Of a stretch of 64,000 nt of DNA, positions 3,001 through 35,353 are shown one piece after another (position 1 is the first letter of the stretch; every line of letters starts with the position of its first letter). The notes beneath the pieces are model-generated. The model saw only the letters and a program-made list of their open reading frames with translations, was not told the DNA's origin and ran no database searches. The DNA comes from Protoeuglena noctilucae (taxonomy: Eukaryota): contig OY253674.1 of the NCBI GenBank assembly GCA_958009085.1, forward strand, positions 124,001-188,000. The letters run 5' to 3'. Made by a program: the position numbers and the translations under genes.

Positions 3001-5471
3001 CTCTCACCTTGGCCCTCAGCTCCCGCACCACCGCGTCCATGCCCCCAGAGTCGTCGGCCACCAGCAAGTCGTCCAGAAGCGTCGACCCACGCAGCCCCCC
3101 GTACACAAACACGAGCGGCCCGACGGCCGTCACCGCGTGCCGGCAGCGCCGGGTGAGCTCCAGGATCCCCGAGGCAGCCGCGGGGTGGTTGGGGCCCCGG
3201 CTGGCCCACACCCCCACGTCTAAGTCGTAGACCACGGCTGAGTTGTCCTCATCCACCATGCGCCCACCCCCCACCGCCCCGCCAATCACGTGCAGCCGGC
3301 CCTCCACGAACACCGCGCCGTGCTGGTAGCGGCCGATGGGCATCGCGCCGGGCGCCTCCGCCCACCTGGGGTGAGGGTGAGGGTGGGGGTGGCAGTGGTG
3401 GGCATGAGGGTGGGGGTGCTGGCAGTAAGGGTGGGCATGCGAGGTGCGCACAGGTGCAGGTGCGGGCGAGGGTGCAGGGGCGGTGAGCAAGTGCAGGTGC
3501 GGTGAGCCGGTGCGTGTGCGCCAGTCGCCGATCAGCAGCGGCGTCCCTCACCACCACCTCCCGTCCCTGTGCCTGCTGAGCCCGTACGCGTCGCTGAGGG
3601 GAGTGCCCTTGGCGTCCCTGCCCCCGCACAGCAGCATGAGGCCGTCGCGCCGGGGGACCGACGTGGCGTACATGCGGCCCACGGGCTGCTTGCCGTCCGA
3701 CGTCTGCGGGTGGGATGAGATGGTGGGGGTTACATGGTGAGAGTGGGGTGGGTATCGGGGTGGTCGACAGGTCAAGTGTTGAGCCATGAAAACATCAAGA
3801 CCATGAAACCAGTGTGCGACACGTTAGCACTGAACACATCGAAACCCCCCATCCTCGCCTGCACTTTCTGCCAGTGGTAGGGCTTCTCGGAGGTGTCGAG
3901 GGCCCAGCAGTCGGGGAGCGTGGTCTTGCCGTCGTTGCCGCCCATGATGACCAGGAAGCGGTTGACCACTAGCGTCAGCGTGTGAGCGTAGCGGGGGCCG
4001 GGGGATGGGCCCTGCACCACCACGCGGTGCCACTGGGGGGGGGAAGGGAATGAGCGGGGGTGACGCGACTGTCGTGGCAGTGAACGGCTGCGCAACAACC
4101 CTGTCTCCAACGATCCTTGAAACGTCACAAGCGAGTGATTGCAGCAAGCGCAGCAGCCCTCGTTCCTCGCACCCAGGCCGGCACCCGCCTAGCCCCAATG
4201 ACGCGCTCCCCGCGTCCCATCACATACCTTAGGCCGCGCCATGTTGGAGAAATCCAGCACGTGCAGGTCGTTGTCCGCCAAGCCGTGAGGTCCGATACCT
4301 CCCTGGATCACCACCATGTTGCCCACCGTCGCAGCCGCGTGGGCCGCGCGCGCGGAGGGTGGCGTGCCATCTGGCACGACTTTGGACCACTCCCTGCGCG
4401 CGGAGGGACGCTCCGGGGCGAAGCTCGCGCGGCGAGGAGAACTAAACGGTATATGAGCGGTCGGGGACAACCTGGCGGGGCCCCGCGCGGAAGGAGGGCG
4501 GCGGTCCGGGTGCAAACCGGCGCAGTGGGCGCGTGGCAGTTCGCGAGCCCCGGAGCCGGCGCCTCTCACCCCGTCGACAGGTCCATGATGTGGATGTCAT
4601 TCGTCGCCCCCGCCAGCCGAATCCCGGACCCCGCCGCCTGCCCCGGCGATGCGGGGGAAGCCGCCCCGTCCGCCCTGGATCCTGCATGACACGGGGGGGG
4701 ACGGGCGCGACCGTGGGCGTCGACGCGGCAAGCGAACGATCCACACCGCTCCCCCGGAAACGCCCGGGCACCGAGAGGATCGTCCGGGCCCCGGGATCGC
4801 GCCCCACGCGGTCATCAGCGACCCCCCCTTCGGTTGCGCCACCGTGGGCCGGTCCCAGCGCCCGAGGGCCGGAGAGCGCCACCCTAAAGCAACAGGAACT
4901 ACCGCGCGGGACCGCGCAGGCCGCTGCATCGCCCCGAAACGCGCGCCGACGGTCGACCGGCATCTCGCCCGCCCCCCGGCGTCGAGACGGGCCACCGAAG
5001 GCATTGCCGGAGATCGATGGGGCCCTCGGGAGCGCGTGCGGCCACCGAAGGCCGGGAAACGGGGCCAGCGCGCCCATCCCGAGGCCGACCCCAGCGCCAG
5101 TCCCCTCGCGCTCCCCTGGGGGGCCTCCGGCGATGGAGACCGGCGCGGAGACGACCCGTACCGCATCCATCGCCGCCGGGCTCGGGGGACGGGCCGCGCG
5201 ATCGGGGATTCTCCGCTCGGCCAGCCCCAGAGGCTGGCCAAGTCAAAATTTCCGGCCCGGGGGAGGCCTCCCGCCTCGGCCTCTCACCTTCCAACGCCGT
5301 GGCCCCTCCAAACATGACCAATTTCGCCGTCGTGATATCCGACTTGTTCCCCATGATCGCCGTCAAGGTGTGCCCACATCTTGGCCCCGGCTTGTCGCCC
5401 AACACCGGGAAGCGCCGGCATAACGGGACGGGGGAGGTCGTAGCCTCCGTGCTCGCGCTGACGGCGGACAT
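73..5471 (-). CDS. BSL1: BSU1/BSL-family Kelch-repeat Ser/Thr phosphatase (PPKL), about 12 exons
   Basis: Spliced reading: MSAVSAS...PGPRCGHTLTA, Kelch repeats (PSARAAHAAA, PGPRYAHTL, PIGRYQHGA), VRLYHRAAVV, then PPP catalytic motifs GDLHGQ, GDYVDRG, RGNHE, HGG, DLLWSDP, RAHECVMDGFERFAQGKLITLF; stop TGA at 75-73. Confidence 0.93.
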
Positions 5472-8900: not shown

Positions 8901-10677
8901 TGGGGTGCACCAGCAACGCGCGCGCAGTCGGGCGGGACGCGGGGTCCTGCGAGCCAGTGAGCGAGTCATTGATCGTCGTCACTTGGTTTGCTAATGCAAG
9001 GGGACTGTTCGACTCTCGCTCGATTTGTCATGACATAAATGCTTGAGCACTGCCACTGCCCCAGGCACTGACGCTGACACGGTTGGCTGCACGCATGCAT
9101 CCACAGCACCCTTGCACAGCCCTTACCAACGCAACCCTCACAACCGTCTTACATTGCTCCACGTGCCCCTTTCGAGTCTCATCCCCACTCACCCTCTGCA
9201 GCATGAGCGCGACGAGGTCCTTGGCAGCTTGGGAGTAGCACGCCGGCACGGGCTCGTGGCTCAGGGCTGCGACGCGCCTGCGCAGGTCCTCGAGGCTCGC
9301 GGCGTGGAACGCGCACCGCTGCGCCATGATCTCGACCATCACGCACCCCACCGACCACACGTCATTGGGCCGACCGTACTCACGCCCCTCCAGCACCTCA
9401 GGAGACATGTAGAGGGGCGTCCCGACCCACGTGGACGCCAGCTGCGACGCGTGCTCGAGCTGCCGGGATATGCCGAAGTCGCCCAGCATCACGTGCGTGA
9501 TGCGGCCGGCTGCGAGGTGAGGTGAGGAGAGCGCGGGTGTGAGCGATGGCTGTCAATCACGCCGCACAACGCTGCTTTGAGAGATGCTCCCCTGCGTTTC
9601 CGAACACAGTCGCGAGCAGGACGACAGCCACTCGCGTGTGTTTGTGAACATTTGATGACTTCGAATGACCAAAGGCAGTCACCATCAGGATCCAGGCACA
9701 CGAAGACGCTTTGTATAAGACAGCTACCGACATATGACTCCCACAGCCAGCAGCAGTCACCGTAGGGGTCGGAGCACACGAAGGCGTTCTCGGTCTTGAT
9801 GTCTCGGTGCAGCACGTTTGCGTCATGGAGGTACTCGAGGGCCAGGAGCATCTGGGCCACGCACGACAGCACGACGCCCTCGTCCAGGTGAACAGCCGGG
9901 TGGCGGGAATCGACTCGACTCTGCTCCCGGCGCATGGCCTGCGGGCGAGCGGGGCAGTTGATAGTAGTAGGGAGCGCGATGGTGCCCAGTCGGGAGAGCG
10001 AAGGTGGTGAGAAGGAGATGAAGAGGTGATGATAACGAGTAGTAGGAGTAAGAGCGTTACAGTGCACAGTGGCCTGCGAGGCGTGGTTGGGAACGTGCTG
10101 TGTTGTGGTGTCTGTGAACAGCACGTCACCTTGACGAGGCCTTGGACCGTCCCGCCCTGGCAGTACTGCAGGACCAGGTGCAGAAGCGGACCACGCGAGT
10201 CCTCCGTGACCGTGAAGTCGCGGCACCACACCGTGAAGGGGTGGAAGAGCTTGCACTGCGAGGGTAAGAGTTGTCAAACTCTTGTTGCAATTCGCGATGC
10301 GGTCATTGCTGGCCCCTCGCGGTTAAGGCAACCAAAGACGCGGTGGGATGCGGCCAGCACCTGAATGGACACTTCACGCAGGATGGCGTCGAGATGCTTG
10401 GGGTCTTCCGGCATCCGCACCGTCTTGATGACCCACGGAGAGCCACGGTACGGCCCGCGGCGCTCCATCGCCAGCACCGCTTTACCGTACGACCCTGCGG
10501 TTCGGAAGTCATCTCAAAGTTGCATTTATGCTAAGGGCGGCCTCGAGCCGGCCCCAGCATCGACCAGTCGGCGCGCTTGCCTTGGCCAAGGGTGCACATC
10601 AGGTCGAAGCGCTCGTCGGGCTTCCACCGCTTCAGCCGCCTCAGACCCGCTATTTTAAGCGCGCTGGCTTCCGACAT
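5954..10677 (-). CDS. NIMA-related (NEK-like) Ser/Thr kinase with long low-complexity C-terminal tail; 3' end approximate
   Basis: Exons give LGQG-SYGKAVL, VIKTV, LVLQYCQGG, QMLLALEYLH, HRDIKTEN, LGDFGISRQL, VGTPLYMSPE, DVWSVG, DPASRP; Pro/Ala-rich exons follow. Confidence 0.85.
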
Positions 10678-14121: not shown

Positions 14122-17100
14122 TCACTCCTGCCTCCTCCCCAGCGCCGCCAGCACATCCCGCATCGTGCCCGTCTTGGCGTACCGAGGGTCCCTCCCCAGC
14201 ACCTGAGCCAAGTCGCCCAGCCCCACCTGCCGCTGCTTCATCAAATCCTCCACAAATGCCTCCTTTCGCCTCTGTGCCCGGTCAGCTTCCGACTCCCCCA
14301 GCCGCTCCCCCGCCGCCACCCCACCCGCCCCCGCCCCCGCACCTGCACCCGCCCCCGCACCCGCCGCACCCGCCCCAGCCCCCGCTGCCCCCGCCCCCGC
14401 TGCCCCGTCCCTCTCCGCAGCCATCGCCTCCTCCGCTCGCCGCCGAATGCGGTTCTCCAGGAAATTGCCGCGAGAGAACATCGTGCGAGGGCCGTCTGCC
14501 TTCTTGCCGGCATCTGCGTGAGATGGTGGGGGCCAGGCGTTAGGGATGTGACTAGACTAAATGCGGTTGGGAGAGAGTAAAAGAGTGCATGCGATCGAGA
14601 GGGAGTATATGATATGTGGTGATGGGATCGGATAGGCTGGCTGTGCGAAGCATGCGACACACACACACACCAGCACCGCCCCTCACCCTTCCCCGCCCCC
14701 GCCGCCCCTGCCCCGCTCGCCGCCGCCGCCGCCGCTGCTGCTGCTGCCGCTGCAGCTTTGGATTTGCTCCCAGCCGCTGCTGCTGCTGCCGCCTCCTCTG
14801 CTTTCCTCGCTTGCTCTTCCCTCAGTTGCTTGATGCGTGCATGTATCATGTTGACCCCTCTCAGCGGGTGCGTGGTGGTCGCAAGCCTGCGTGAGATGGG
14901 ATACCTATCAGATGGGATGCGGATGCGACACCTTGCACCACCGTCACTCCCACTGCTGCGCTCACTCCCAATCCCATACTCTCTCCCACCCTCTCGCTTA
15001 CTCTGTCCACCCATTCACTCCCACCCATCCACATCCACTCACCTCTGGCTGTACCGCTGCACGTCCAGCCTCAGCTTGGACAGCTCAATGGCCCTCTCCA
15101 GGATTCCCTTCAGATGCGCCTCGACCGCGTCATTCAGAAACTGCCAGGCGTCCCGAGACATCTTGGAGATGCTGGGGGGGGAAAGAGAGGAGAGGTGGTG
15201 TTATTCAAAAACTGCCAAGCATCCCGGGACATCTTGGAGATGCTGGGGGGGTGGTGGGGGGAAGGGGCGAGATGTTATTTGTACGTACATATGTAACACT
15301 GCCCATGCTCAGCAGCTACCATGGGCACTTTTATCTGCAAGTTCCTTCCCAACACCCTCACAGCCATCCCTTTGCATGATGACCCACTATCACTTCCCGC
15401 ATATTATTCACTCACCCATTCATTTCCATGATTTTCTTGGCCAGGTCGAAGGTGGTCCACTCGTCCAACGAAAAGGGGACGTCCGACGCGGGACGAGCAT
15501 CGGCAAACTCACCCCGGTGCACCTGGGAATAACACAGAAGAGGGCATGTGCGTGAGAAATAAATGAATAGATGATAACTCTCTGACATTGTTGTACAATA
15601 CGTATGGCGAACTCACAACCCTTCCATCTCGCATGCACCTAACGTCCGCCCCTCTTCTTGCCCCATCTCACCCATCCACTCATCCACCCACTCAGGCCAC
15701 TCACCATCCGCCCCTCATCCCGCACCACCTTATCCACCCACTCCCACCACTCACCATCCGCCCCTCATCCTGCACCATCTTATCCACCCAATCCTCGTCA
15801 TCCTCCTCCTTCTGCCCCGCGGCCCTCTTGGCAGGCGGGGCGGCCCCAGCAGGCGGCCCCTCCACTTTACGCTTCACACCCTGCACGCAAGCATGCGAGC
15901 AGACATTGATATAGCAGACGTTGTATGCATGCAAGAAGCTACGTATACAAACGAGCGTAGCAATGCACCCACTCGCACGCCCACGAGGGCGTGCATGGTG
16001 CACGGTGACATGCCTGGGTGCGCTGAGGCCTGAGCTGTGTGCCTTTGAGGTGCAGTCAGTCAGTCCTGGGCGCGCTCACCCTTGCTGCCCCCGCAGTCAG
16101 CACCCTTTCTCCCAACACTCACCGCTGTCTTGGACTCAGCCCCTGCCGCCCCCGCTGTCCCCGCCCCTGCCCCCTGAGCCTGTCCCTGAGGCTTGCTCCC
16201 AGGGCGCATCGCCTCCTCGAAATCTTGCTGCCAAAGAGCGCGCATCTCGCTCTGCAGAGCCATCATATCCTGCTTCCTCTGCGGACGGGGGAAATGATGG
16301 ATGCGTGTGCTGCGAGACGGCGTGAGGGTCCGACACTCATCAGCCCCCATGCATCCCGCATGCGCCGCCGCACCCCCGTGAGCGTGGTGAAGAAGTTCTG
16401 GGACGCGTATTTCTTCAGCATGGACATTCCGGCGTTATATCGCTGCACGTACCACTCCCCGCCCAACTGCGTTCCCTGCGAGGCAAGCCGCGGCCGGATA
16501 TAAGTCGCGAGACTACGAATTATTTCTTTACGACCGATCTCGCACCAAACAGGCAGCTCAGGCTGTTCACACCGGCGCAGAGAGAGGTCGACCCGAACAC
16601 ACCGCGGCCGCTGTTAAGAGATGCTCAACCCGCAGCGTCGCGCACCTAGCCCCGGCCCTCGCACCTTGACGTAATCTTGGCGCAGAAGATGTTCCATGAT
16701 CTGATGGAATTGAGTCTTCCATTTGCGCTCGTATTCGGGAGGCACCTCGGGCTGCGAAGCCGACGGCGGGGCCGATGCCACCCCGACCGCAGCGCCGCCC
16801 CGATGCTGCGCCTGCGCGTGTGCGGCGGCGACGGCCGGCGATTGCGCAGCGACGCCCGCCGGCTGCGTGGCCACCGCTGGCATCCCAGCCATGCCGGGCC
16901 TCGGCGCTTGTGCGAAAGCCCCGGGTCCCGGTCCCGCCGGCCTCATGGGCTGAACCTGCGCCACGGCGGTCGCTGCCGGCTGTCCCACAGCCGGCGCCGG
17001 TGGCCGGGTGGGCGGGGCTGCAGCACCGCCGGGCTGCAGGGCCGCGGCCGGTGGGGCCGTGGAGGCCGCAGGCGCTCGGGAAGCCGCCGGGGCTTGAGCC

Positions 17101-17153: not shown

Positions 17154-18222
17154 CTCGTCGCTGGCGCTGGGAGAAAGGCCACGGAGTGCTGCGGACGCGA
17201 GAGACGCGCGCTTCTGCGCATCAGCTCGCGAACCGGGGATACAGATGGTCGCATCTCGCCATATGAGCGCCATAGGTCACCCAGGCGTGGCGACTCCGCG
17301 GCCAAAGCGCGCCGTTCCGAGGCCAGAAGCACACTCACGTGCGGGGACCCCTCTCCAGGGCGTCGATGTACGCCAACGAGCGACCAGCACTATTCTATCA
17401 TTACAGATGTACTACACGAAGGGAAGGGAGACGGAAGGGTGCCAGCAGTGGCCCAGGCAGCGTGGAAACCCGTCCCTCGGTCGTGCGTCCCACCACGATG
17501 CGGCGCTGTGCCCGCACCCGCGTCCGCAACACCCCGATGATAGCAGCAGATTGCGTGAGTCCAGCTCTGTCGGAAAAGCGAGCACAAGACGCGAAACAAG
17601 CAGGCTCCTGCACACAAGTTCTGGCCCTACCCAAGGGGGCGCATCAGCAGCGCAGTGACCATCTGCGTAGGCAAAACATGCACGTCTGGATCGGCGACAG
17701 GGTCGGGATCCACGAACGAAGTGCGCAGGTGGCGTGCCGCAGGCCGAGTGGATCGGGGAAAGCTTTTCGCGGGGCCAACTCGCAGCGAGGCCATGTTCTT
17801 AGCTTGTGGACACGTCCCGTGTCCCCATGCGCGCGCGGCTTGAGGCGGCTCGCCACGTTTCGAGGGCTGAATGACGCCTGCTCTCTCTCAGCGGCTTTCG
17901 TGAGCTAAAGCTGATGGCGACCGCAACTTGCCACCTTTGTCGATCCGCACAGATTGGCGGACGAGCAGGAGCACGTGTCGGGGACGCGCGGGGGCTGGGC
18001 AATCAGTCGCGCTTGCTGGAGGTCCCGGGCGGCCGGGTAGCGGATCTCCTGCGGAAATGCCGGCGACAGTCGTCACCTGGAGCCGGTCTCCCGCCTATGG
18101 GGCGATCGCGCTGGCCAGGTACGGCCCCCGCGCCGCGCGGGATGCTCGGGCCGCTCTCCGGCGTGCGGCGGCGGCCCCCGGCAGTCCGCTCCACGCGCGG
18201 TCGCCGCCATCGCACCCGCAGC

Positions 18223-21200
18223 ATGACTGGCTTCGAGCTCGCCGTGGAGCTGGACGAGAAGGGCCGGGGCTCGCGCGAGACGCTGCGCTTGGACGGCGGG
18301 GCGGCGCTGCAGGGCACAGCCGCGATCCTGCGCTTCATCGCGCGGTCCGGGGGCGCTGCGGCCGAACATCTGGTGCGTTCTTGCTCTTATCTCGCGCCCG
18401 CCGCGCCCGGGCAACCGGATCTGTCCCGCGCGGGCGCAGGGTTTTGACGTAAAACGCACCTCGCGTGTTTGCAGCTGGGCACCGGCCCGATAGGTATGCA
18501 CGAGGTGGACGAGTGGCTGGCGTTTTCGTCGTCTCTCGAGGCCGGTCCGCAGTTCGACTCGATCTGCGCGGCGGTGGATGCCCAGCTGGCCCTTAGGTCG
18601 TACCTGTCGGGCCACGACCTCACCGTGGCCGACCTGGCCGTCTGGACCACGCTCACCAACAACATGCAGTTCGACAAGGCGAGGATGGTAGCCAGATAAG
18701 CCAATAGTTAGCATTCCATGGTCATCGTGGAGCACGATGCGCAGTCGCCATCCCAGAGCAATCAAGACGCCCCATGGAGTGGGCATGGGGCCTTACGATC
18801 AATGTAGTAGTTGCTATTACTAACATCTCGCCTTGTGCTTTTCGTGCTTTCGCAGGTGCTCAAGCAGGGCAAGCTCCCTCACCTCAACCGCTGGTACGCC
18901 CACATCGGTGCCGCCCCCGCGGTCGCTGAGGCCTTCGCCAAGGTGAGAGCAGCAAGTGCGGAATCATCACCGACGGTGTTGGTTGAACTCTGCGATCACT
19001 CCGAATCCCCGATCTTCTCTCGTTCGCAACAACGCACGGCCGTCCGCCGGTTTGCGACCATCCTCATGTTTGAACGTGCTTTCCGCCCATCACGATAACG
19101 TGCTCCGCCCCCGCCTTCCCCCGCCCCGCAGTACGACTGGCGCAAGGGCGGCCGCGGCACCCGGGAGACCTCCTCCCGCGCGGCCGAGGTCATCGGTCGC
19201 TCGAAAGGCGAGGGTGGCACGTTCGACATCGACCTCCCTGGCGCCAGGCCCGGCCACGTCGTCACGCGATTCCCGCCCGAGCCCTCTGGGTATCTGCATA
19301 TCGGGCACGCCAAGGCGGCTTTGCTGAATGACATCCTGGCCAAGATCTATGACGGGCGCATGCTCGTGCGGTGCGTGGGGGTGTGGGGGTGGTTGCGGGT
19401 GTGGGTGTGGGTGTGGGGTGTGGGGGTGCGGGTGACACGAGAGAACGCTTTAGTGGTGATAAAAGCAATTATAGTAGTGCTAATCACCCATCACTGTCGC
19501 TGAACTTGACCGTCGCTTAATCCCTCCGCTTGCTCCATCCCCCTTCAGCTTCGACGACACGAATCCCAGCAAGGAGAAGGACGAGTTTGTGGACAACATC
19601 CTCAAGGACATTCAAATCCTGGGGCTCACCTTCGACAAGGTCACCTACACCTCGGACTACTTCCCGCAGGTGCGATGAGGGGGGCGGGGGTGGTAGGGTG
19701 GTAGGGTGGTGATGATTGATAGATTGTTGTTGTTAGTGCGTAAGCTACTCGAGTACTTGCTCACTCACCTCGCTCACTCAGTTACTCACAGTCACCTCAC
19801 TCTCTCACCCCCCACCACCCACTCCCTCACCCCCAAACCCACTCCCCCCACTCCCCCACTCCCACCAAACTCCCTCCCTCCCTCACCACTCCCTCACCCC
19901 CTCCCTCAACTCCCCCCCCAGCTGCTTGACCTGGGCGAGCGCATGATCCGCGCGGGGCTGATGTACGCGGACGACACGCCCGTGGAGCAGATGAGGGAGG
20001 GGAGGCTGGCGTTACAGGCCAGCCCCTGCCGCAACCGCACAGGTGAGGGGGGGGAAGATGTATGTGGGGTTGTGTGAGTGACTGGGGGTGGTGGTGGGTG
20101 GCAGCAGCAGCAGTGAGGGTGGCGAGGGATGGGGGGATTATGTAACTGAATGTGGGACGGATGGTAGCTGCGGATCGTTGTAGATTAGGGAGCATCCTGT
20201 TGCTATGCTATGCGCATGCCAACTGTGCGCCATCGTAGCCGCCGTTTCCGGCCTCGGCTGGTGTCGCTGGCAAATCGCACGTTCGATCCCCGCCTCCGCC
20301 CCCTCCCCCAGTGGAGGAAAACCTGCGCCTTTTCGAGGAGATGAAGAAGGGGACCGCGGAGGGCGCCGCGAACTGCATGCGCGTGAAGATGGACCCCGCC
20401 AACGCCAACGGGTGCCTCCGTGACCCCGTCGCATTTCGCTGCAACCCCACGCCGCACCACCGCACGGGCACCAAGGCGAGTGGTGTAAGAGTAAATAGCA
20501 ATAACGACTGCCTAGTGTAAGTATCGCTGATATTAGTACCAGCAATGGTGTGCAACCCCACGCCCCACTGCTGCCCTCTTCATCACTCACTCTCGTTTCC
20601 TATTCCCTATCGCAGTACAAGGTGTACCCCACGTACGACTTCGCCTGTCTCTTTATCAACCATTCATTCTCATCTTCTATCCTATCCCCATCATGCAGTA
20701 CAAGGTGTACCCCACGTATGACTTTGCGTGTCCCTTCGTGGATGCGTTCGAGGGCGTCACCCATGCACTGCGATCCTCGGAATACAAGGACAGGGAGACG
20801 CAGTTCTACTGGTGAGGGATGACGGTGTTGTTGTTGTTATGTATATGTGGCAAATATGGGATAGATTGGGATAGATGATATGGAAAGTTGATGGGTGGGA
20901 CACGGAGGCGCGGTTATTTTACTAAGGATGGGAAAGTGTTTACCATCATCCACACCACTCTCGCCCACGCCACCTAACCCCCCATCTCTCACCCCCCCCA
21001 ACCCCACCCCCCCCCACCCCCCCATCCCCCCAGGATGCTCAAGCTGGAGCAGCAGGTCTGGCCCAGCCTCCCTGACGTGGTCATTTACGATTATGCCCGT
21101 CTCAGCTTCGTGCACACGGTGCTGTCGAAGAGGAAGCTGCAGTGGTTTGTGGACAAGGGCGTCGTGCAGGGGTGGACCGACCCCAGGTTCCCCACCGTGC

Positions 21201-23032
21201 AGGCGAGGGGGTTGGGATGGGGGTAGAGGGGTTGCTATCGATTGCGATTACAAATCGCTTGCTCGCCCACCCCCACCCCCACTCACCCATCTCCGCTAAG
21301 TTGTCCACCCCCACCTTTCCTGCTCATCCGCTCACTCTCACTCACACATCCACCCCCACTCACTCACTCCACCCCCACCCCACCCCCACTCACCCCCACT
21401 CACTCACCCACCTCACCCCACCCCACCCCATCACCCCCACCCCACTCACCCCCACCCCCCCCAGGGCATGATCCGCCGCGGTCTGACCCCCCACGCGCTG
21501 CGCGAGTTCATGATATCCCAGGGAGTGTCCAAGAACACCACGCTGCAGGAGTGGGACAAGATATGGGCCATCAACCGCCGCGTCATCGACCCGGTCGCGC
21601 CCAGGCACACGGGTGAGAGCAGGGGATGGGATGGGATGGTTATCATGGGATGGTTACTATGGGATACATGGGGTAATTGGTGCGCCGTCATTGACCCCAT
21701 TGCCCCAAGGCACACGGGTGAGGGGGGAAGGCAGAGGGGGTGGATGAAGTGGGGTGGGGTGGGGTGCTGGGTATTGCGTGTCATGCGCTGCACTGCATAG
21801 ATAAAGTCAGCTTGCATGTAGTATATCACTGCATTACATTCCCTATTCCCCATTTTCCCATTCCCTGTTTCCCTATTCCCCTCACCTCCAGTGATCGAGT
21901 CCCGCCGTGTTCCCCTTTTCCTCCACCATCCTCCTCTCATTTCAATTCCACACATATCATAATCCTTCCTTCCCCGCACGTCCAGTGATCGAGTCCCGCC
22001 GTGTGCCCCTTATTCTCTCCAACGGCCCCACGACGGTCGAGGTGGTGACGGTGCCGAAGCACAACAAGAACCCTGATGTGGGGAAGAAGGCGTCCTATAG
22101 GAGCAGCCGCGTGTGGGTGAGTGGATGGGGGAGGGTGGGGTGGGTGGGGGTGTGTGGTGGGGTGGCAGTGGGGGTGGCAGTGAGGGTGCACGTGTGGGGC
22201 GGGAATGATGTAATAAACACATCCTTGTCATTACTGGTTGTTATATCTCTCTATATACATACACATTTCATCCAACCCCCATTCCCTCTCCCCCTCACCC
22301 CCAGATCGAGGACGCCGACGCTGTTCTCCTCTCCCCCAACGAGGAGGTCACCCTCATGGCATGGGGCAACTGCATCATCCGAGAGATCGTCAAACACCCC
22401 GACGGCCACATCGAGGCACTGAAGGGGGATTTGAACCTGGCCGGGGATTTCAAATCGACCAAGCTCAAGCTGACGTGGCTGGCGGACGTGGTGGAGTTGG
22501 TGCCAGTAGTTATGAAAGAGTTCGGGTATCTGCTGACCAAAAAGAAGATCGAGGAAGACGAGAGATTCGAGGATTTTGTGAACAAGTGAGGATTATGTAC
22601 TGGGGATATGTGGATGGGTGGGGTGGGGTGGGGTGTTTGTAGCAGTGAGAGTGGGGGTGCTTGTTATGGGTGAGAGATTCGAGGATGTCGTGAACAAGTG
22701 ATGGTTGCTTGGTGGTTGGTAATTGCTTGCGAATGGATGGATAGAGCTGCTGTTGCTTACTCGCCCACCCCCACATCCCCACTGCCACCCCCTTCCCACC
22801 CCCACTACCCCACACCCACGCCCACCTCACCCTTACCCCCACCCCCTCCCACCATCCTCCCAGGAACTCCGTCACCACCACCGAAGGCCTGGGCGACCCC
22901 AACATGCGCAATTTGAACAAGGGCGACATCATCCAGTTGGAGCGAAAGGCCTTCTTCATCGTAGAGCAGGCCATGGGGGTGGCGGGGCAGGGGATCGTGC
23001 TGCACCGCATCCCGGACGGGAAGCAGGGGTGA
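18223..23032 (+). CDS. Cytosolic glutamyl-tRNA synthetase with N-terminal GST-like domain, about 14 exons
   Basis: [16 protein letters not shown] (HIGH motif), [61 protein letters not shown]. Confidence 0.95.
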
Positions 23033-23379
23033 TGGGGAGAGGGATCGTGCTGTGGGGAGCAGGGGTTGGGGGGTTGGCTAATGGGGGTGGCATGTAGTTG
23101 GTCTGTTGGGGTGGTGGCGCGACGAAAGGGCGTTCAAGAAGCGTGCCTTGGACCAGCGGAGTCCCTGCGAACGTGCTCTGGTCTGGCGCGGGCGTTTCGA
23201 TCAAACGTGCTTTGCGCCGGACGAACTAAGTGTGACCTGAAAGGACGTGGCTTGAAAGGACGAAGACAAGGCATTAAACATGATTGGCACAAGTCTCAAG
23301 CGTGCATGTGTAGTGTCGACTGGCGCATGCCTTTCGCACAAAACCGTGGACAGCAATTTCTCAGCCTTTACTCCGCCCC

Positions 23380-24998
23380 TCACCCCCCCCTCCCCCTCGC
23401 CGCCACCCCTTCCTCCATGTCACCCCCCAGCATCAGCTCCGCCTCCGATTCCGCCACCGCCCGACTCATCTCCACTTTCATCGAATCAGGGCAGCCGTCC
23501 ATGACGCCACGGAAAAGTTTCCTGCAGAGCGTCAGAGAATAGAAGAGAATGGAGAGGGTTGATGTTAATTGCATGTGTGAAGGACAGTATTGACACATCC
23601 CCAGTCTCGCAGCCCACCTCACGCCAACCCACTCACCACACACCACCCACGCCCACACCACCACCCCTCACGACCCACACCCCCACCCTCTCATACCACC
23701 CCCCTCATCCCCACCCCCTCACCTCAAATCTCTCGCCCGGTACAGCGACCGCCCCACGATCTCCTGCAGCACGATCCTCTTGAAGTACAGCACGAGGCTC
23801 TCGCCCCTCTTTCGTGCTGCGCCCTGGATGGGGTCAGGCGCGCTCAGCACAGCACCCCAGTCCACGCCGGGTTTGGTGGAAGCAGCGGGGGCGCTTTCTC
23901 TGAAGAGGAGAGAAAGCAGAGGGAAATCGTTGAATATCTATGGACAGGACTGCCATGCATAGACTAGGCAAGCGCATCGCACCGCCCCAACGCTCATTTC
24001 TCTGTATCACCAACCATCCCCTCCCTTCATATCAAGTATATAACCTTAACATCGACACTCCCAGTCACCCACCTGCCCCTCCCCGCCCCCGCCGTCCCCC
24101 CAGGCCGGCTGGCGACATGCTCAGCCACACCCGCACCCACACCCCCAGCACGTCCCGCCACCCCACCGCCCTCCGCCCCGACCCCAGCTGCGTCCCGCGA
24201 TGCCCCCGCCGCATCAACGTTTTCGAAATCATCATCGCTGGATTTGAATTCCCGATCGATGCCCCGGTGGGTGGGTGCGGTGCGTGGGCGGGTGCGGGCG
24301 TAGGGGTTGTTGGGCACCCATGTGCAGAGGCTCGCAGCCACGCGGTTGCGGTTCGTGCGCACGCCCAGCGCCGGTGCGGGGTGCACTGCGGAAGCGGGCG
24401 GGGGAGATGGAAGGGTTGCAATGCAATGGTGGGCAGGCGTTTGCAACGACCGGACCGCTCTGTGTAGCACGCTGCTGCACAATGCTCGCTCAACACGCAC
24501 CCGAGAGGTCCCAGGGGTTCTTGCGCCGCTCGTTCGGGGCGTACATGGCGGATATGCGCCGGTGCATGTGGTGCAGCTGCGTCAGATGCCGCGCCGTGCC
24601 TGTCTCCGTCTCTAAGACCTTCGCCCGCCGATTGGCGCTGACCTGGGCCGGCGTCGGCACCGTGCAGCATTGGCTCTCCCGATTTGAGTCTTTCTGGTAC
24701 AGCCCGGCCACGCGCCTGCGGCTCAGCGCGTCCACCGGCCCGTCCGCGCGAGGGTACCGAGAATTCACTTTCCCCGTGCGCGCGGCCTGGGCCACCCGCA
24801 GGTCGTGGCTGCGGAGATTGTTCGCGATCTCCTGCGGCGAGTGTAGCGGACGCGGGCGCTCGCGAGGCCAGCAAGCGCTACCGGGGCTGCACCGCTCACA
24901 ACAGAATGCGAAGCCCCCGCGCGAGGCGAGCCGTGGTCGCTGACCTGCGCGCCTCCTATGTTATTGTCATCTAGGTAAAAGCGCTTGACTCGTTGCAT
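23380..24998 (-). CDS. Hypothetical protein; 5' end uncertain
   Basis: Spliceable exons ending LYFKRIVLQEIVGRSLYRARDL-KLFRGVMDGCPDSMKVEMSRAVAESEAEL; no family confidently recognised. Confidence 0.45.
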
Positions 24999-25379: not shown

Positions 25380-27951
25380 ATGGACGGCGAGTTAAGCGTC
25401 GACCAGCTGCGGGAGCGGCTGAAGGGGCTGAAGGAGCTCGTGGACGAGGGGCTCTTCACCCAGGTGCGCGTCGCGACCATTCCCGCCCGCGCCGATCGCG
25501 GGACGCCGCAATGACCGCCGTGCGGCATGCTCGGCATTCCGCGCGCAAGAGTGCGGCCCCGGCACGCGCCTGCGGGGCCGCGCCGGGCTGCCAGGGGCGC
25601 CCTCGTTACGAATCCGGGCGCCGACGGTCCGGGGTCCCGACGCGCGTATCCCTGCGTCCGGCGCCCAGGAGGACTACGACCGCATGAAGGGGGCATATGT
25701 GGCGGCGGAGGTGATTAGCGTCGGCCGCCGCACGGGCATCGTGTCGAGCGGGACGGAGGAGCAAGCCATCAAGCGCGCCTTCTGGGAGTCCGTGACGTCC
25801 GCGCGGTCCGCAGGCGGACGGGAAACGGCGTCGTACGACTTTTACCAGATCAGGTGCCGCGTTGGGAGGCCATGGGGCGCAGCGAGCCGCTTTGCGCGGG
25901 GTAGAACTCGCAACTCGCTCGCTCGACTAGTTAAAAACGCTCCCCGCTGCCCCTCGCGAGCCATCGGACTTTGGTAGACAGCAGATGTTGATCTTTATAA
26001 CATCGGCGTCGTCGCGCGCGCACCCGCAGGAGCCCGAGCAGCCAGCCGGAGACCCCGCACGGCACGCGTGCCGCACCCACTCCCCACAACACGCGCGCGG
26101 CGCCCACGCCAGTCCCGACGCCGTCCCAGGGCCCCTCCCGCGCCCAATCCCGCGCGCATTCCGGTCATTCCACGCCGGTTCCGCGGGCGCTGTCGCACGG
26201 GAGGTGAGCGTGGTTACGAGTGCTTTCTGTCCTTCGCTGCGCCGCGCTGCCGCAGCGTTGCCGCTGCAGTGACGGAAGTCGGTATGAATGCGATCCAAAG
26301 ATGCCCGCTCTGCGCCGCAGGGCCTCGCAGGACCGTCCCCCTGGTCTGTCGACGCTGCCCCCGCTCGTCGACAACGAGGGTGGGCCAGTTGCGGCACAGC
26401 AGGTGAGGGATGGTGGGTGTGGTTGAGGCAACAGGATGACAGACAGTGCTTGGTATGTACCGTTGCTGTCCTCATCGCACAGGCACCTGTGACATCAATA
26501 TCACGATCAATGACGCTCTCCCCATCGCAGGCCAAGGACCCACGCCAGCTCCCAGGCGCCGTGGCACTCCCGGGCATGGCCGCGCTGCAGGTGGGGCATA
26601 TGGGGACATGGCAACAATCATGACGGAGATTCATTTCATGGTTACTATCAACTCACTGCGCTGTTGCCATCTCACACTGCCCTCAATCACCACCCACAGC
26701 CCCCTCACACACACACACACACACCCAACCCCCCCACATCACCCCTATCCCCCTCATCAACCCCACCCCCACTCACCCACCCCACTGAGCCACCCCACCC
26801 CACCTCACCAACCCCCCAGAACGGCCGCCCCCCCCACGCCCTCCGCCCCGTCTCGAGCGCCCAAAGCGACTCGACGGGCAACGACGACCCAGCGCCACCC
26901 ACATCCATCGACGGACACCAATACGCCACCCCATCCGCACCCTCCGCCCCCGCTGCCCCCAACACCCAACCTATCGCATCAACCACGGACGATCACCCCT
27001 CTGTCTCTGTCCCTACTATGTCAGTGCCAGTGCCCTCGCGTCAGGGTTCAGCGGCAGGGACGGTGGACCGCGCCCCGCCCCGGGGTACGGTGGTCAACGA
27101 GGGTAATAACCTGGCGGGGATCGGGTTCGACCAGGCGATCGCGGCGGAGTACAAGCAGCTGCTGCAGGTGAATAGGGGTTGGAATGGTGGATTTGTGGAG
27201 AACGTGATGTGGGGCGGTGCTCCTAATGACACCACAGCAACTGACCCACACTGTGCAATTGACCCTCACACAGCAGATAGTACCTCCACTACCCCTGCGT
27301 CTCTCACCCCCACAGCGCGGCGCGTACATGTGGATGATATTCAAGATCGAGGACGGCAAGGCGGTGGTGATGGAGACGACGGGCGACCCTGGCACGAGCT
27401 GGTCTGACCTGATGGACCACCTGCCACAGCACGAGCCTCGTTTCGTGCTTTACGACCACCACTTCCGATTGGGCGACGGGTGCCAGTTCAACAAGCTGGT
27501 GTTTGTGGTGTGGGCGCCGGAGAGCGCGCCGGGTGAGTGGTGGGGGAGGGGGGGGGAGTGGGAGATATGGGGGGTGGGAGGGGAGAGGGAGTTGGGATAG
27601 ATGAGAGAGGAAAGGGAGGTGGGAGGCGGAAGCACGAGTCAGTAAACACGTAGCTGACTACGATTGCCAACGATTGGGTCCTGTCACTAATAATATTCCC
27701 TCTCCCCCTCCCCCCAGTGCGCCTCAAGATGCTCTACTCATCACTCACTCACTCATCATTCAATCTCATTTCTCTGAATCAATTACCCCCCTCTCTCCCC
27801 AGTCCGCCTGAAGATGCTCTACTCTGCGGGCAAGGACGCACTGCGCCGCAACTTGCCGGGCGTGACGGTGGAGATGCAGGCGTGTGACTGGGAGGACATG
27901 TCTCTGGCGGAGGTGGATGCCCGGGTCCGGGCCATCACGCAGGGGGGGTGA
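25380..27951 (+). CDS. ADF/cofilin-domain protein with short N-terminal SHOCT-like helix and long disordered linker
   Basis: C-terminal YMWMIFKIED...PRFVLYD...NKLVFVVWAPESAPVRLKMLYSAGKDALRRNLPG is an ADF-H fold; N-terminal LRERLKGLKELVDEGLFTQEDYDRMK. Confidence 0.8.
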
Positions 27952-28416: not shown

Positions 28417-31265
28417 TCAGGGCAGCTGAGTCAGGAAGGGCGAGGGGGCATCAGAAACGCTCCCCTCCCCGCCCCCCGCCTCCACAAACGCCCCCCACCC
28501 CGCACCTCCCTCATGCACCTCCTCCTCCCCACCCTCTACACCCTCTGCAACTTGGTCCAATTGCCCATCCCCACTCTTGCTCTCATCAACACCCTCCTTG
28601 CCACCACCCACCCCACCCTCGCCACCCTCACCGCCCTCGCCACCCTCACCGCCCTCGCTATCCCCACCCAACCCCGCACCCTTAGTCACCTCTCCCCCCA
28701 CCGCCTGAGCATTCGACTCTCCCATCTCATCCCCACCCAGCCCACTCGCTGCCGCCACGCTGCTCTCTTCCCCACCCACCGCCACCGTCACACTTTCATC
28801 GATGTTACCAGCCCCATGCTCGCCACCATCCCTATCAATCCCATCACCCCCACCATTGAGCACCCCTCCATCCCCGCCCTTCACAGCACCAGTCTCGCCG
28901 CTCCCTTCGCTGCCACTGCCCACAGCGCCACCCACCCCCGCCTCATCGCCACCCTCCCCACCCGTCGCCTCCACCACCCCCTCCGCCATCACCCCCGCGC
29001 TATCCCCCAGCTCCACCCCGCCACCGCCACCACTGCTCTCAGATTGCGCGCTCGCCGCCACCCCCTCGCCCATCCCCGCATCTCCATGCTTAGTCTGCTC
29101 AGCATCCCCGCTCAGCTTCCCGTCGCCATTCTCACCCACCCCACCTCCGCCCTCACCCCCCTTGTTTGCCCTGCCCTTGCCCCCCTTACGCACTCCCTCG
29201 TTGCTACGCTGCTCCTTCACCCTTCCATCAACACCCTTGCTCCCACCCTCTTTCTTGCCCATGCCCACCTCCTCATCGCCACCCCTGCTCACCCTCCCAC
29301 CCTCCACCCCCGCATCCCTCCCCTTCGCCCCACCCCTCTCCCCGTCATGCTCAGTTGCGCTACCATTCAAATCTTCATATACTTGATCGATCCAGCCCCA
29401 CGCAATGATGCTCACACGGCCAAGGCTGTGCTGGCGAGATGGGGGCACCTGAGGGATGCCGTGCTTCCACTGCAGAACACGAAACACACAGAAAAGGTTT
29501 TATTGATAAGAGATGTTTGAGTCATGATATGGACGCAGCGATTGCATCGGTAGATGCACAGATGGGGCTGACCATGGCACTCACCTCCACATGCAAACCC
29601 TCATACTAGCCCCCAACACCCCACCCCACCCCTCACCTCCACGTTCACGTCCCTCCCAAACACAAACCACCGTATCACCATACCCCCATACACCACAACC
29701 ACCCCTCACCTCCACGTTCACGTCCCTCCCAAACGCGTACATTGATCCGTTGGGCAGCGGCGCCGACACAACGGCCCCCGTCCGCATGTGCTGAAAGGCC
29801 ACCTCCCTCTCCGCCCCGAATGACGCGGCCACCGTCGCGTTTTGTTTCTTGGCTGCCCAGGGCTTGATGGCGGCAGCATCATGGTGGAAGGGCTTCCAAT
29901 CTACGAGGGGAGATGAGAGGGGAAAAGGGGTTATAATTTGAGATGTAGAGTTAATTGTCAGTACAACCAGCCCATTACAACCAGCCATCCATTCCATTGG
30001 CACCCTCACCCGCCGAATCCTTGTACCAGTTGAATCGCGTGGCCTGGATGCGCATGCCGAAGTAACTGGACATCCGGTCAATCACTGCGACTGGGGACCA
30101 CATGACAAGGGTGGCAGTGGTGGCAGTGAGGCAATGGTGGCAGCGGGGGAAGTGATGGCAGTGGTGGCAGTGGGGGCAGCGTGGCAGTGGTGGCAGTGTG
30201 GCGGCAGTGGCGGTGGGGGCACAGTGGGGCGGGGGTGGCACAGGTGGGGACACAATGGCGGTGTGATCAGCAGGCGAGAGGGTTGAAAGGGACAAGAACA
30301 ACGGCGTTGCCAAAGAGACCTTTCTATCACACTGCCCATGTCCCGCTCGCCTTTGCGGAACGTGGGCGACGCCTTCCAGTCGTACTTGCTGTCGTTGGCA
30401 ATCCAATGGGAGTCCTCGTGCCACGTCACAAACACGTCGTGGGTGCCTGCGGGGGGCAACACGCGATGCACACATGTGCACGTTCATGTTTACATGGACA
30501 AGTACCCATGTCTGTGCATGCCCACATTCATGACCATACCCATGCCCACATCTACAAGTGCCATATCCATGCATGCCCACATCCATGACCACCTCTGCGC
30601 CCCCCACCACCCACCACGCCCACCGCACCCCCACCTGCGCTCTTAATCTCGTTCAGCAGGCTCTCGTAAACACTCCCGTCGCTTTCCGCGCAAAAGAAAT
30701 CGGTGCCGATCACCACGTCACGGCCCACGTACGGTCGCGGGAAGCGGGGCACGGGCGGGGCCACCACAACGCGCAGGTCGGCGGGGCGGTGGGTGGCAAC
30801 GGGGTCGAACGACGTCGTGTTGACCCCGCGGCGCTCCGCCAGGGGAGCGCGGTCCGCGCGGGAACCGGACCGAGCGCTGTTCTGCCTCTTGCGGGGAGCT
30901 GCCGCGGCGTCGGGCTTCGCTGGCGCGTCGCGGGAAGGGGCGTCAATTACGGTGGCTTGCAGGCGCTCGTTGCGCGGCCCGGCGTCCTCCCCGGCGCGGC
31001 GCGGGGCCGGCTGCCGCGCGTAATCGCTTCCCGGAGCGGACGCGACCTCGCGCGGCGCCGGGGGCGGGGCCGCTGCGCCGGGCTTGCCGCCAGCATGCGG
31101 AGCGCGGTCACGCTGCGCCTGCCTTGCCGCGCCGGGCTCCCGGTGGCGATCCCCGCTGTCCCCGGAGCGAGATTTGGGCCTCTGTATTTCACGCAGGGGA
31201 CCTCCGCGCTCGGCGAGCGCCGCGTCGCGCGTCGAATCGCGGAGAGCACGGACCATGATCTTCAT
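28417..31265 (-). CDS. AlkB-like 2OG-Fe(II) oxygenase with about 320 aa Gly/Glu-rich C-terminal tail
   Basis: TRFNWYKD, DWKPFHHD (HxD), TVAASFGAERE, LPNGSMYAFG, WKHGIP, GRVSIIAWG. Confidence 0.8.
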
Positions 31266-32438: not shown

Positions 32439-32812
32439 CGAGAGAGGGCGCGGTGGAGTGAGTGACGTGGCCTGATGGATGCAAGTAGTGATAGCAGTGA
32501 CTGACAGCACGACCTAGACTGTGATGAGCTAGAACATTGTAAGTACGCCAGTGTGACTGTCGCGATGACCCAGCCGGCAGGGCGCTGGCCAGTAGACGCA
32601 GATGCATAATTTGAACGCCCTAGTTGCTCAGGCATCTAGAAGATATTAACTGTGCGAGTGTGAAAGGAGAAACAGGCGCGGGCAACCATCCTCAGCAGCA
32701 GCTCATCCGCAGCACAAACAGCGACAGTCGTCGCACCCCCAGCCATATCTCATCCGCAGCACGAGAAGTGCCGGTTGTGGTACCACGTCTCCCTTTGATA
32801 TACCATCAAATC

Positions 32813-35353
32813 TCATCCACAGCACGAGAAGTGTCGGTTGTGGTACCACGTCTCCCCCTGGGGCGCCGCGATCTCCTCGGCCGTCAGCCTCTCGTCCAGT
32901 CTCGGTGATAGCGTGAAGAAGTCCACCACGTTGGCCCAGGGGCCGTGGTTGAAGGCCAGCGAGTGCTCGGGGAGGCCGTCCAGGTACCACAGGGCTGCAA
33001 GGGGGTGTGGGGTTGTGAGGGAGAGTGGTGTGAGGTTGTTGAGGGGTGCAGGGGGTGTCAGGTGGTGAAGCATCACAGGTCTGGGGAGATGCAGGGCCGG
33101 GCAGCGAGAGACTGGCAGCGACAGACTGCCTCAAGCCCTGCGTGTGCCCAACCAGGTGTCCTAGCTGCTACTGTATTGTTGATGTTACTGGAGCAGTGAT
33201 TGTATCCTAACCCTCACTCACCCGTGGGGTGGTCTTCCTTGGTTTGCTCGTACGTGGTGCTGTTGGTGAGGATGAGGTAGACCTGCCCCACCCACAGGAG
33301 GCACATGGGCACCATGATGAAGGCGAGCAGGATGGCCGTGACGACCAGGAGGGTGTCCCCCGATGCCCACTTGGCCCACTTCATGCTGTAAGCGAACGCC
33401 TCGCAACACGCCGAGAAGGCCCAGGTCACCAGGACGGTCTGCGCACATGTGAGGGGTCGTCGTGGGGTTTGTTGTGAGTGTTATGGGCAGAGCTGGTGGG
33501 GACGGAGAGGAGAGAGCGAGGTGAAGAGAGGAGAGAGAGAGGTGAAGCTCGTGTGCGGGGTGTCGCGGCACAGTGGAGCCACTGTTACAGCTCGTGTTGC
33601 ATGCATCGTCTACTGGAAGTCGTGGCAATGCCGTCCCTCGCATCGCTGGCTCGCCTGGGTGGTGCTGAATGCAAAGAAGAGCCGCTGGTTGTCGCGCCCC
33701 ACGCAGTTGCCCACCCACACGCAGTGGTGGTCGAACCGACGCACGCACCGACCGCAGTCGTAGCAATGCTGCGGCACAGGGGGCGCAGTTACGAAAGCGG
33801 TGAGTTGCTAAAGCAGTGGGCTGCGAGTTGCGGTGGACATACCGACACACGTGCCGGCAACCATCGCAGTCGCATTTGCACTCGCAATCGCAGTCGTAAC
33901 GCCGCAGCTCCTCCGCACCTTGACGCGCGGCGCCTGCCACAGCCCGCACTGCCCGCAGTAGCGTCCTATGGGCCCCACGTCCCCGTGCTCTGGGTCCCTC
34001 CCCGACTCGGGATCGTACCGTATCACCGCCACATTGCGCTTGGCGGACCCCAGCAGGCCGCTGCGGAGCGCGCGCTGGCCGTCGGCGGGGCCGCGCTCGG
34101 CGTCTCTCCCGCCGGCGGCCGTCGCGCGCTCCGCCCCGGGATGCTTGGGGCCGCCCTCTTGAGACTCGGCCACTGGGCCAGGGCCAGCGCGCGCGCCACG
34201 AGGCATGAGGGTGCTCGCGGGCGGCTCGTCGCCCTCGGGAGCCGGCCACAACGCGTGAGCGTGGCTGTGGTCATGTCCATGGTCATGCCCATGTGCATGT
34301 GTGTGGCTGTGGTTGTCGTGGGAGTGGGCGTGGGCGCCGTTGACGGGGGCGAGCGCGACCTCCCTCTCACGTCCGGCGTCCGCCAGATAGACGGCGCGAT
34401 TGGCGTCTGGAGCGCAGGAGACGGGAAGCAAGGCTTGGCACGGCATCGCATGGTGCGTCGTCACATGGTGCGTCGTCACATGGTGCGTCGTCACATGGTG
34501 CGTCGTCACATGCGGCCCGATACGCCGCCCCCACCAGCCCAAGCCCCTCGCGCAGACATCTGCAAGCTCACCTGAGGTGGCAGCGTGTCCCCGGAAAGCC
34601 TGGTGCTCCTCCCCCGCATCGACGTAGCCCGGCTTGGACCTCGCCACGATCACGTACAGCAGCACGTTCACGAAGAACACCGCAAAGAAGACTCCGGCGT
34701 AAGCGGGGTAGTTGTAGTTTGGCATCGGATCCAGGCTCTCGTTTTGCTGCGGGAAGGGAGGCAGGGCGGGCTGTCTTCAAGCGCACTGCGGGGGCGTGCA
34801 AGCGACGAGGGTCAGGGCCGGGGACGCACCGGGGTGGTGGGGTCGTCGTATGCCGTGTGCTGGCGCTTGCCGATGAGGCCCATGCGGATCGGGCTCTGCG
34901 GGGTCGAAAGGCAGCGGGCTGTGAGAGGGGCGTGGCGGGGCGCAGCGGTGTCACATCGCAGGGCGCAGCCGAGCACCTCCGGGAAGGTGCAGAGGACCGC
35001 CATCACGTATATGTGCAGCGCGAAGAAGACCGCTCGCGCCGCGGCATGACCGATCCTCGCTTCGCGCAGCCTCCGGACGCGGAAGTCCTTCGAATCTTCT
35101 GCAGGCGACGTGCGCACTTCGCGGTCGCTGAGAGCGGCGTCTTGGCCCCGGCCACGCAGTCGCCGGGTCACACTCGCCCAACCAAAGCGCTCGACGCTGC
35201 TATTGGCAGGAAAGGCCGCTCCGCGGCCCGCGGACCAGGGCGGGCGCACTCACCGTCCTGCGTGCCCCGGCAGCAGCCGTTGCAGAGGGCGTTCGATGCC
35301 TTCAGCGCCGCCTCCCCTACCGCCCTTCCCTTCGCTGCCGGGGGTCCCGGCAT
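32813..35353 (-). CDS. DHHC protein S-acyltransferase
   Basis: [45 protein letters not shown], TM segments, ends FSCCG*; start exon tentative. Confidence 0.9.
34449..34512. repeat. Intronic 15-bp tandem repeat CATGGTGCGTCGTCA x4
   Basis: Four exact contiguous copies plus CATG, inside a DHHC intron. Confidence 0.9.

Follow-up and report, generated by a model that had tools for sequence, protein, structure and literature searches.

The window analysed here, a 64-kb stretch, is GC-rich nuclear DNA of a marine eukaryote, with about 59–72% GC per 2 kb. Its plus strand carries, at about 18223–23040, a 13-exon gene that encodes a class I glutamyl-tRNA synthetase (GluRS). The exons of this gene were modelled by demanding an open frame across GT/GC-AG junctions, and the first three were corrected from X9 record 24, a metatranscriptome contig of 2307 nt whose pieces and record lengths match the model from exon 4 on. 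Exon 10 (21465–21612), which matches the Pfam family tRNA-synt_1c with an E value of 5.8e-05, agrees with the record lengths of the RNA contig and ends with one base of a split codon, so that the following intron is in phase 1; exon 11 (21986–22116) is likewise defined by both the model and the RNA contig. Exon 12 gives a Pfam match to the anticodon-binding domain, and its closest foreign relatives in a protein search are green-algal GluRS proteins with 56–61% identity. Words of the region 18200–24200 are present in species-labelled runs, in ocean metagenomes and in metatranscriptomes, and a search of 18000–24000 for known RNA families found none. Nearly every intron of the window has runs of G right after the donor and runs of C before the acceptor; about 44 G-rich-then-C-rich units of intron size were found in the window, a rough figure in which a few units share one C-rich block.

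Intron 10 of the GluRS gene occupies 21613–21985 and is in phase 1, exactly as the first-pass annotation had placed it, and the exon model and the RNA contig agree on these borders. With 373 nt it is the longest of the nine GluRS introns measured, the other eight being 178–278 nt long. At its 5' end, the last 32 nt of exon 10 together with the outer donor GTGAG (21581–21617; the donor is the one used in X9 record 24) are followed by a G-rich spacer of 68 nt (21618–21685) and then by a second copy, or echo, of the exon 10 end with an inner donor GTGAG (21686–21722). This echo is identical to 21581–21617 at 31 of 37 positions with a spacing of 105 nt; the repeated unit includes the exon end and the 5' splice site, and both copies end in GTGAG. 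The inner donor opens an intron-like unit of 174 nt (21718–21891), composed of GTGAG, a G-rich arm, an AT-richer middle, a C-rich arm and CAG. At the 3' end of this unit lies an echo (21876–21923) that comprises an acceptor, with 16 nt made up of C-rich tract and CAG, and 32 nt resembling the start of exon 11; it matches 21970–22017 at 43 of 48 positions with a spacing of 94 nt (90% over 52 in blastn). A C/T-rich spacer of 46 nt (21924–21969) separates it from the functional copy, which consists of the outer acceptor and the start of exon 11 (21970–22017) and was delimited by the repeat search and the RNA contig. All these features are on the plus strand.

Sequence and repeat search bear out the nested layout that had been proposed for this intron, with copies of both exon ends, an intact inner donor and acceptor, and a core of 231 nt (21687–21917). 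Codon comparison also confirms the recoding that had been described: the upstream stub differs from exon 10 by four silent codon changes and one change from Val to Ile, and in the part of the downstream stub quoted in the annotation there is a single silent difference. Read-through to the inner donor (+105 nt) keeps the frame and would extend exon 10 by 35 codons with no stop. Judged by the consensus of this gene, the inner donor and acceptor fit as well as the outer pair. Without its two echoes (37 + 48 nt) the intron would measure 288 nt, near the 178–278 nt of its neighbours.

In X9 record 24, the pieces ending at 21199 and starting at 22304 are separated by 281 letters, which equals 3+148+131-1 and shows that exon 10 is joined to exon 11 via the outer donor (21612) and the outer acceptor (21986). 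Use of the inner donor would have added 105 letters and use of the inner acceptor 94, and the contig fits the removal of all 373 nt. The RNA depth of X9 is 0 in the bin 21617–21817; regions without RNA cover were not counted as proof of silent inner sites, and contigs miss rare forms. The outer sites fit the same contig at all three echo-bearing GluRS introns: for intron 7 there are 519 letters between 19369 and 21033, and for intron 12 the contig joins 22585 directly to 22864. Given that the inner sites match the consensus of the gene no worse than the outer ones, splice-site choice seems to be set by position, not strength. On the 3' side, where the downstream-most acceptor is used, the branch point would be expected in the 3' spacer.

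The quality of the inner sites, together with the better preservation of the exon-derived parts relative to their surroundings, might also be explained by selection on the RNA, with the echoes kept as decoy or helper splice sites, or with the inner unit removed first as a nested intron. In the latter case, the 373-nt intron would be cut in two steps of 174 nt and then 199 nt, both about the usual size of a GluRS intron. We consider such a function improbable. The RNA contigs show no use of the inner sites, although rare forms would be invisible to contigs; a role at the RNA level does not predict the codon-phased differences described below; the predicted fold of 21600–22000 is no more stable than that of shuffled sequences (z -0.72); and the spacings between copies in the window are not generally in frame, 5 of 14 being divisible by 3. 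The echoes are also not flanked as recursive splice sites would be: 21686 is not preceded by AG, nor is 21917 followed by GT, so the stubs lack an AG|GT junction and were rejected as recursive sites.

At least 11 further exon-end copies lie inside adjoining introns of the 64 kb, mostly at one intron end only. The copies are 18–52 nt long, with start-to-start spacings of 49–114 nt and spacers of 13–93 nt, and their orientation is almost always direct (26 direct versus 1 inverted at the same threshold). Snap-back or inverted copying was rejected as an origin, a search for it having found only 1 inverted complex repeat within 500 nt in the window. In the GluRS gene, 4 of 24 junctions have an echo. 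Intron 7 (20476–20698; span 20440–20736), which has a GC donor and outer sites that are used in the RNA, carries two: an 18-nt patch copied from the exon interior (20551–20568 versus 20440–20457; 17/18, 111 nt away), and an echo of the acceptor and exon start (20612–20653 versus 20695–20736; 38/42, with a gapped match of 77 nt at 82%). Intron 12 has a donor echo (22672–22706 versus 22560–22594; spacing 112), found by the repeat search and with a joint seen in the RNA, and the end of the coding sequence is echoed as well (22976–23002 versus 23026–23052; 22/27, spacing 50), the second copy holding the stop codon. That two introns of one gene have echoes at both ends is, by a rough estimate, somewhat above the window-wide rate, and would speak against two independent events in such an intron.

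Outside the GluRS gene, acceptor echoes are present in a TAF4-like gene on the minus strand (15129–15251, copies at 15129 and 15200; 47/52, spacing 71, spacer 19) and in a cofilin/ADF gene on the plus strand (27704–27824, copies at 27704 and 27789; 32/36, spacing 85). Donor echoes on the minus strand include a pair of identical copies at 29623–29734 (29623/29696; 39/39, spacing 73), with a spacer of 34 nt that is not significantly like the flank; a pair at 32744–32856 (32744/32807; 47/50, spacing 63), with an unrelated spacer of 13 nt; and a pair at 54389–54523 (54389/54483; 36/41 in the exon part, spacing 94). Also on the minus strand, at 771–912, an exon end and its donor occur in three copies (771, 836 and 885), which requires two events; the copy adjoining the exon is 885–912. 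The repeat scan further gave a weaker echo near 53287/53344 and a repeat of like kind within an intron, at no junction (52949/53048). Pfam confirmed the GluRS, cofilin and, weakly, the TAF4-like exons, and for four echo-bearing genes the reading frames were taken from open reading frames only. By a rough estimate rather than a tally, some one in ten junctions of the window may carry an echo. The echoes of intron 10 appear to be an instance of something that this genome does often, with short duplications arising at junctions and being removed by splicing.

Chance is excluded as the origin of the exon-end matches. A scan of the whole window gave 26 complex direct matches at offsets of 30–400, compared with 0 and 0 at the control offsets 5030–5400 and 9030–9400, and looser settings gave 27 direct matches versus 4, 3 and 4 at control offsets. 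Tandem near-copies with silent differences are also what an assembler would yield by joining two haplotypes, or overlapping contig ends, in series. A Logan contig of 7852 nt from run X2 covers 18200–21322 and 21460–22186 with no differences; this run carries the species label and may itself be the source of the window assembly. Runs X1–X4, which have the species label and belong to another study, hold 99–100% of the words and are a likelier assembly source than X5 and X6, which are marine metagenomes from a study different from that of X1–X4. X5 record 12 (21460–22172) and X6 record 20 (21749–22102) match the window with 0 other letters and 0 gaps, and X5 records 10 and 14 and X6 records 18 and 21 span the remaining GluRS echoes in introns 7 and 12. 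Among the listed matches of X2, X5 and X6, contigs of a kind that drop rare variants, there were no other letters, indels or supported alternative joints at the intron 10 locus. The first-pass annotation had named reads that resolve into two haplotypes as the finding that would overturn its reading; contigs of three DNA runs instead carry the structure in one piece. The independently built X5 and X6 contigs cross the junctions with 0 differences, which rejects serial stitching of haplotypes unless these two runs were the source of the window assembly; we regard such an artefact as extremely improbable.

The reading we prefer, and hold with roughly even confidence, is that intron 10 results from two separate short local duplications, one per junction, which were tolerated since the outermost sites are used. 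An ordinary intron of about 290 nt would have gained a copy of the exon 10 end and donor at a spot 105 nt downstream, and another duplication would have copied the acceptor and the start of exon 11 to a spot 94 nt upstream, so that the appearance of an intron within an intron would be the sum of one event per end. Both duplications could be products of error-prone repair of breaks or of replication in cis, of the tandem type and often with unrelated filler between the copies, and duplication of this kind would happen often in this genome. Where a duplication spans a junction, it would be harmless, because the spliceosome would take the outermost donor and acceptor and the spare copy would fall inside the intron. 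An equivalent duplication within an exon would break the protein, and the survivors would for this reason be concentrated at junctions. Selection alone would produce this concentration, and the runs of G and C at intron ends might, speculatively, also make the DNA near junctions prone to breakage. Duplications do occur away from junctions, within an intron (52949/53048) and at the coding end (22976/23026). The repair mechanism is proposed rather than observed; we infer it, as we do that the two events were independent and that selection caused the junction bias. If correct, this would be a concrete route of intron growth, in which introns swallow duplicates of their own borders, and it would mean that a small, gene-dense algal genome tolerates many border duplications.

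The stretches between the copies bear on the form of these duplications. When the spacers of 10 events were compared with the flank expected from copying of a whole unit, the shuffle p values were 0.06, 0.88, 0.01, 0.037, 0.69, 0.41, 0.13, 0.99, 0.42 and 0.54, a weak and patchy backing for such copying; for intron 10, the donor side shows only a weak likeness (p 0.06) and the acceptor side none (p 0.88). The acceptor event of intron 7 can be aligned, at 82%, along 77 nt of an 83-nt period and is close to a tandem duplication of the whole unit, and the 18-nt patch from the exon interior in the same intron would be typical of patchy repair. The exon-derived part of the echoes is far better kept than the neighbouring stretch that a whole-unit duplication would have copied along with it. 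A plain tandem duplication of the whole unit followed by even decay fails for the youngest events (29623/29696 and 32744/32807), whose spacers are not significantly like their flanks, so that either filler or later homogenisation must be assumed; our reading is that each echo is a short direct duplication accompanied by filler. At up to 93 nt, the spacers in this alga exceed the usual length of filler in break-repair duplications.

Every model predicts the same layout, and the sequence of intron 10 by itself therefore cannot decide between one event and two. Two are preferred because one-sided echoes are the rule elsewhere in the window and because the intron without its echoes, at 288 nt, resembles its neighbours. 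A difference in age between the stubs had been suggested as a sign of independent duplications. The stubs differ from their exons at 6 of 32 and 3 of 32 positions (Fisher P 0.47), or at 6 of 32 and 1 of 26 (P 0.12); neither difference is significant, which makes the comparison uninformative.

The main interest of these echoes lies in their being a genome-wide habit and in a bias of their differences toward silent sites. Of the 32 differences from the exons in 12 echoes (352 nt), 21 are silent, 9 are replacements and 2 lie in split codons; 20 of the 30 that can be classified fall at third codon positions. Under a neutral model, in which the echo decays freely and the exon accepts silent changes only, 40–53% of the differences are expected to be silent across five mutation models that allowed for CpG transitions up to 20-fold, a transition bias of up to 3 and a G/C-to-A/T bias of up to 4. 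The observed 21:9 exceeds this expectation with P 0.0009–0.045, and when differences within 6 nt of the distal edge were dropped, the ratio became 19:5 (P 0.0001–0.008). With the coding-end echo added, which itself shows no silent bias, it became 22:13 (P 0.005–0.16). The silent-site excess is suggestive, in a small sample, and not robust. Among 26 differences, all 6 transitions in CpG context are at third codon positions. In a hand count of third-position polarity, an A/T in the echo faces a G/C in the exon at 7 sites and a G/C faces an A/T at 6, a comparison with no power between models. One of the echoes (771–798) carries a change from Lys to stop, and the Ile of the upstream stub of intron 10 is found in 3 of the 11 foreign GluRS proteins that show the motif.

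The silent-site excess keeps alive, as a rival, a source that was itself under coding constraint. The echoes might have been copied from a diverged functional homologue, with a break in the intron repaired off another allele, a homologous chromosome or a hybrid partner. Exon flank and intron would have entered either as one 231-nt piece or separately at each junction, for example by unequal exchange between diverged alleles, and the stubs would appear recoded since both versions coded for protein during their divergence. Such a copy would account for the silent excess (21 of 30 differences, and 19 of 24 once those near the distal edges are set aside), for the third-position placement of all 6 CpG-context transitions, and for an exon part much better preserved than the adjoining intron part; the complete, consensus-like splice sites of the inner unit and the existence of the Ile state in foreign proteins would fit as well. 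The bias could, however, also arise in cis. If exon and echo exchanged sequence by occasional gene conversion in a very large population, echo mutations that do harm once transferred would be selected against, which could produce the bias, and the exon-derived part would in addition stay more similar than the sequence around it. Further points tell against a diverged homologue: the Lys-to-stop change at 771–798 cannot derive from a working gene, the inclusion of the unbiased coding-end echo weakens the signal, and one-sided echoes predominate.

A donor of this kind would need an exon divergence of about 9% (32 differences in 352 nt), and among the listed matches of X2, X5 and X6 at ≥ 90% likeness there is none; the next-best protein relative of exon 12 is just 56–61% identical. 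Protein searches with exon 12 for a sister lineage recovered, apart from 16 contigs that carry the window's own fragment, no sequence closer than these relatives, and a metagenome scan with the same exon gave only two distant GluRS loci (L001, GC 52%, and L002, GC 29%) with 35–70% identity per segment. The search for a donor allele or lineage that carries the inserted version, over three DNA runs, one metagenome scan and the protein collection, was negative, which is weak counterevidence. With these points weighed, we consider copying from a diverged homologue unlikely, though a serious contender. The first-pass annotation had favoured a specific form of it, in which the 231-nt core is the whole intron of another allele with its exon stubs, pasted into the present intron. 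The nested layout and the mostly silent recoding are consistent with that proposal. Echoes of a single exon end are, however, common at other introns, so that pasting of a whole intron is not needed and two independent junction duplications explain the nesting. An allele whose only intron is 21718–21891, which the proposal calls for, was sought among the listed contig matches of three DNA runs and was not among them, again a weak negative.

If the silent bias holds genome-wide, the echoes would be new evidence either for recombination between diverged haplotypes or for concerted evolution of exons with their intronic twins, and this evidence would come from an organism with almost no visible diversity. 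That they are scars of breaks repaired off a diverged homologue, the gap being filled from another haplotype or a hybrid partner, for instance after excision of a mobile intron, seems to us rather improbable. It would have considerable reach: the partner's intron would arrive with short, silently recoded exon flanks, as in a homing-like spread of spliceosomal introns by co-conversion, and the echoes would preserve a trace of sex or hybridisation for a picoeukaryote whose marine populations today look almost clonal.

Several known systems resemble the echoes in part. A literature search brought up no account of exon-end echoes as a widespread feature of algal introns, which is not proof of absence. 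Small tandem duplications that arise from the repair of breaks with overhangs or of adjacent nicks are described in excerpts of PMC8355091 and PMC5730883; like the echoes, they are direct copies, tens of bases long and close together, sometimes with filler. Repair of this type is, by analogy, a plausible source of the echoes. Introners, according to the excerpted text of PMC9860276, are transposon-derived introns with target-site duplications of 3–9 bp; they share with the present introns a length of about 200 nt, an occurrence in marine algae and terminal direct repeats of host sequence, from which splice sites can be drawn. The echo copies, at 18–52 nt, are much longer than these duplications, their spacers form no sequence family, and each echo sits within an existing intron beside a second splice site. 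In blastn, the 9 GluRS introns matched only themselves and the echoes in the 64-kb window. Insertion of an introner was rejected, as the duplications are too long when set against the 3–9 bp given in that source and there are no further copies of the introns in the window.

Introns can also be created by segmental duplication of an exon piece that bears AGGT (PMC3265369, in excerpt). There too a local duplication doubles the splice signals and the extra copy is spliced out; that process makes a new intron from an exon, whereas here an existing intron is lengthened with its position unchanged. Stwintrons, the nested spliceosomal introns of fungi (excerpts of PMC12403724 and PMC8469720), likewise contain an intron-like unit inside an intron. 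In a stwintron, as these sources describe it, a splice signal of the outer intron is split by the inner one, which has to be removed first. Intron 10 was rejected as a stwintron: its outer donor (21613) and acceptor (21985) are intact, and its inner unit begins 105 nt in and carries exon stubs.

The closest likeness on the donor side is with minisatellites that span an exon-intron boundary. In intron 7 of human F7, the first unit of a minisatellite with a 37-bp unit spans the boundary, and boundary-spanning minisatellites are also listed for IFI 6-16, CBS, LMNB2 and PDGF (PMC1557585, in excerpt). As in the alga, the exon end and donor are repeated in the following intron, and among the good sites so formed the most upstream one is used, according to the same text. 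The algal echoes differ in being single extra copies, not head-to-tail arrays, with a mostly unrelated stretch between the copies; they also occur on the acceptor side, where the downstream-most site is used, and are spread over many genes. With near-identical donors or acceptors 50–115 nt apart and the outermost used on both sides, the introns that carry them are natural test cases for splice-site choice. Their spare splice sites can also mislead gene prediction.

Many introns in the window carry runs of G directly 3' of the donor and runs of C 5' of the acceptor, a pattern found in about 44 places and exemplified by the intron-like units at 19364-19552, 22105-22310 and 54076-54497. The order, G then C, is read on the + strand regardless of the strand of the gene. 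In base composition the two arms of such introns complement each other, and quadruplex-like runs occur in the G arms. The glutamyl-tRNA synthetase gene (GluRS) includes two introns of the GC-AG class, intron 7 (20476, +) and intron 9 (21203, +), both of which open with GCGAG. GC also replaces GT in the donor echo at 771-798 (-), a spare copy of an upstream exon end and its splice site inside the adjoining intron, in the gene at 771-912.

Two further introns on the - strand contain duplications. At 52949-53090 (-), the duplication is entirely intronic, with a period of 99 nt and a core match of 35/43; on visual inspection, the intervening sequence is also similar to that following the second copy. 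At 32697-32860 (-), the intron start, comprising the donor and about 14 nt, is present as three consecutive copies, and both upstream copies include the exon end.

The C-terminus of GluRS seems to have been reshaped by local duplication at 22976-23052, since a 27-nt stretch of the final codons recurs 50 nt downstream in another reading frame and the stop codon falls within this second copy. Across 18200-24200, contigs from the marine metagenome runs X5 and X6 match the window exactly, introns included, with identical stretches as long as about 1.6 kb; among the contigs listed, the sole mismatch is a single differing letter, carried by an 877-nt contig. At this locus the species looks nearly clonal.

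The repeats at 49499-49960, which have a period of 99 nt and lie within an open frame, look like protein repeats, putatively of the ankyrin type, and unlike junction echoes. A 15-nt unit forms a tandem array of four to five copies at 34436-34512. Within a distance of 500 nt, the window yields a single complex inverted repeat, at 34042-34155 (39/48, arms 18 nt apart), in a GC-rich sequence context.
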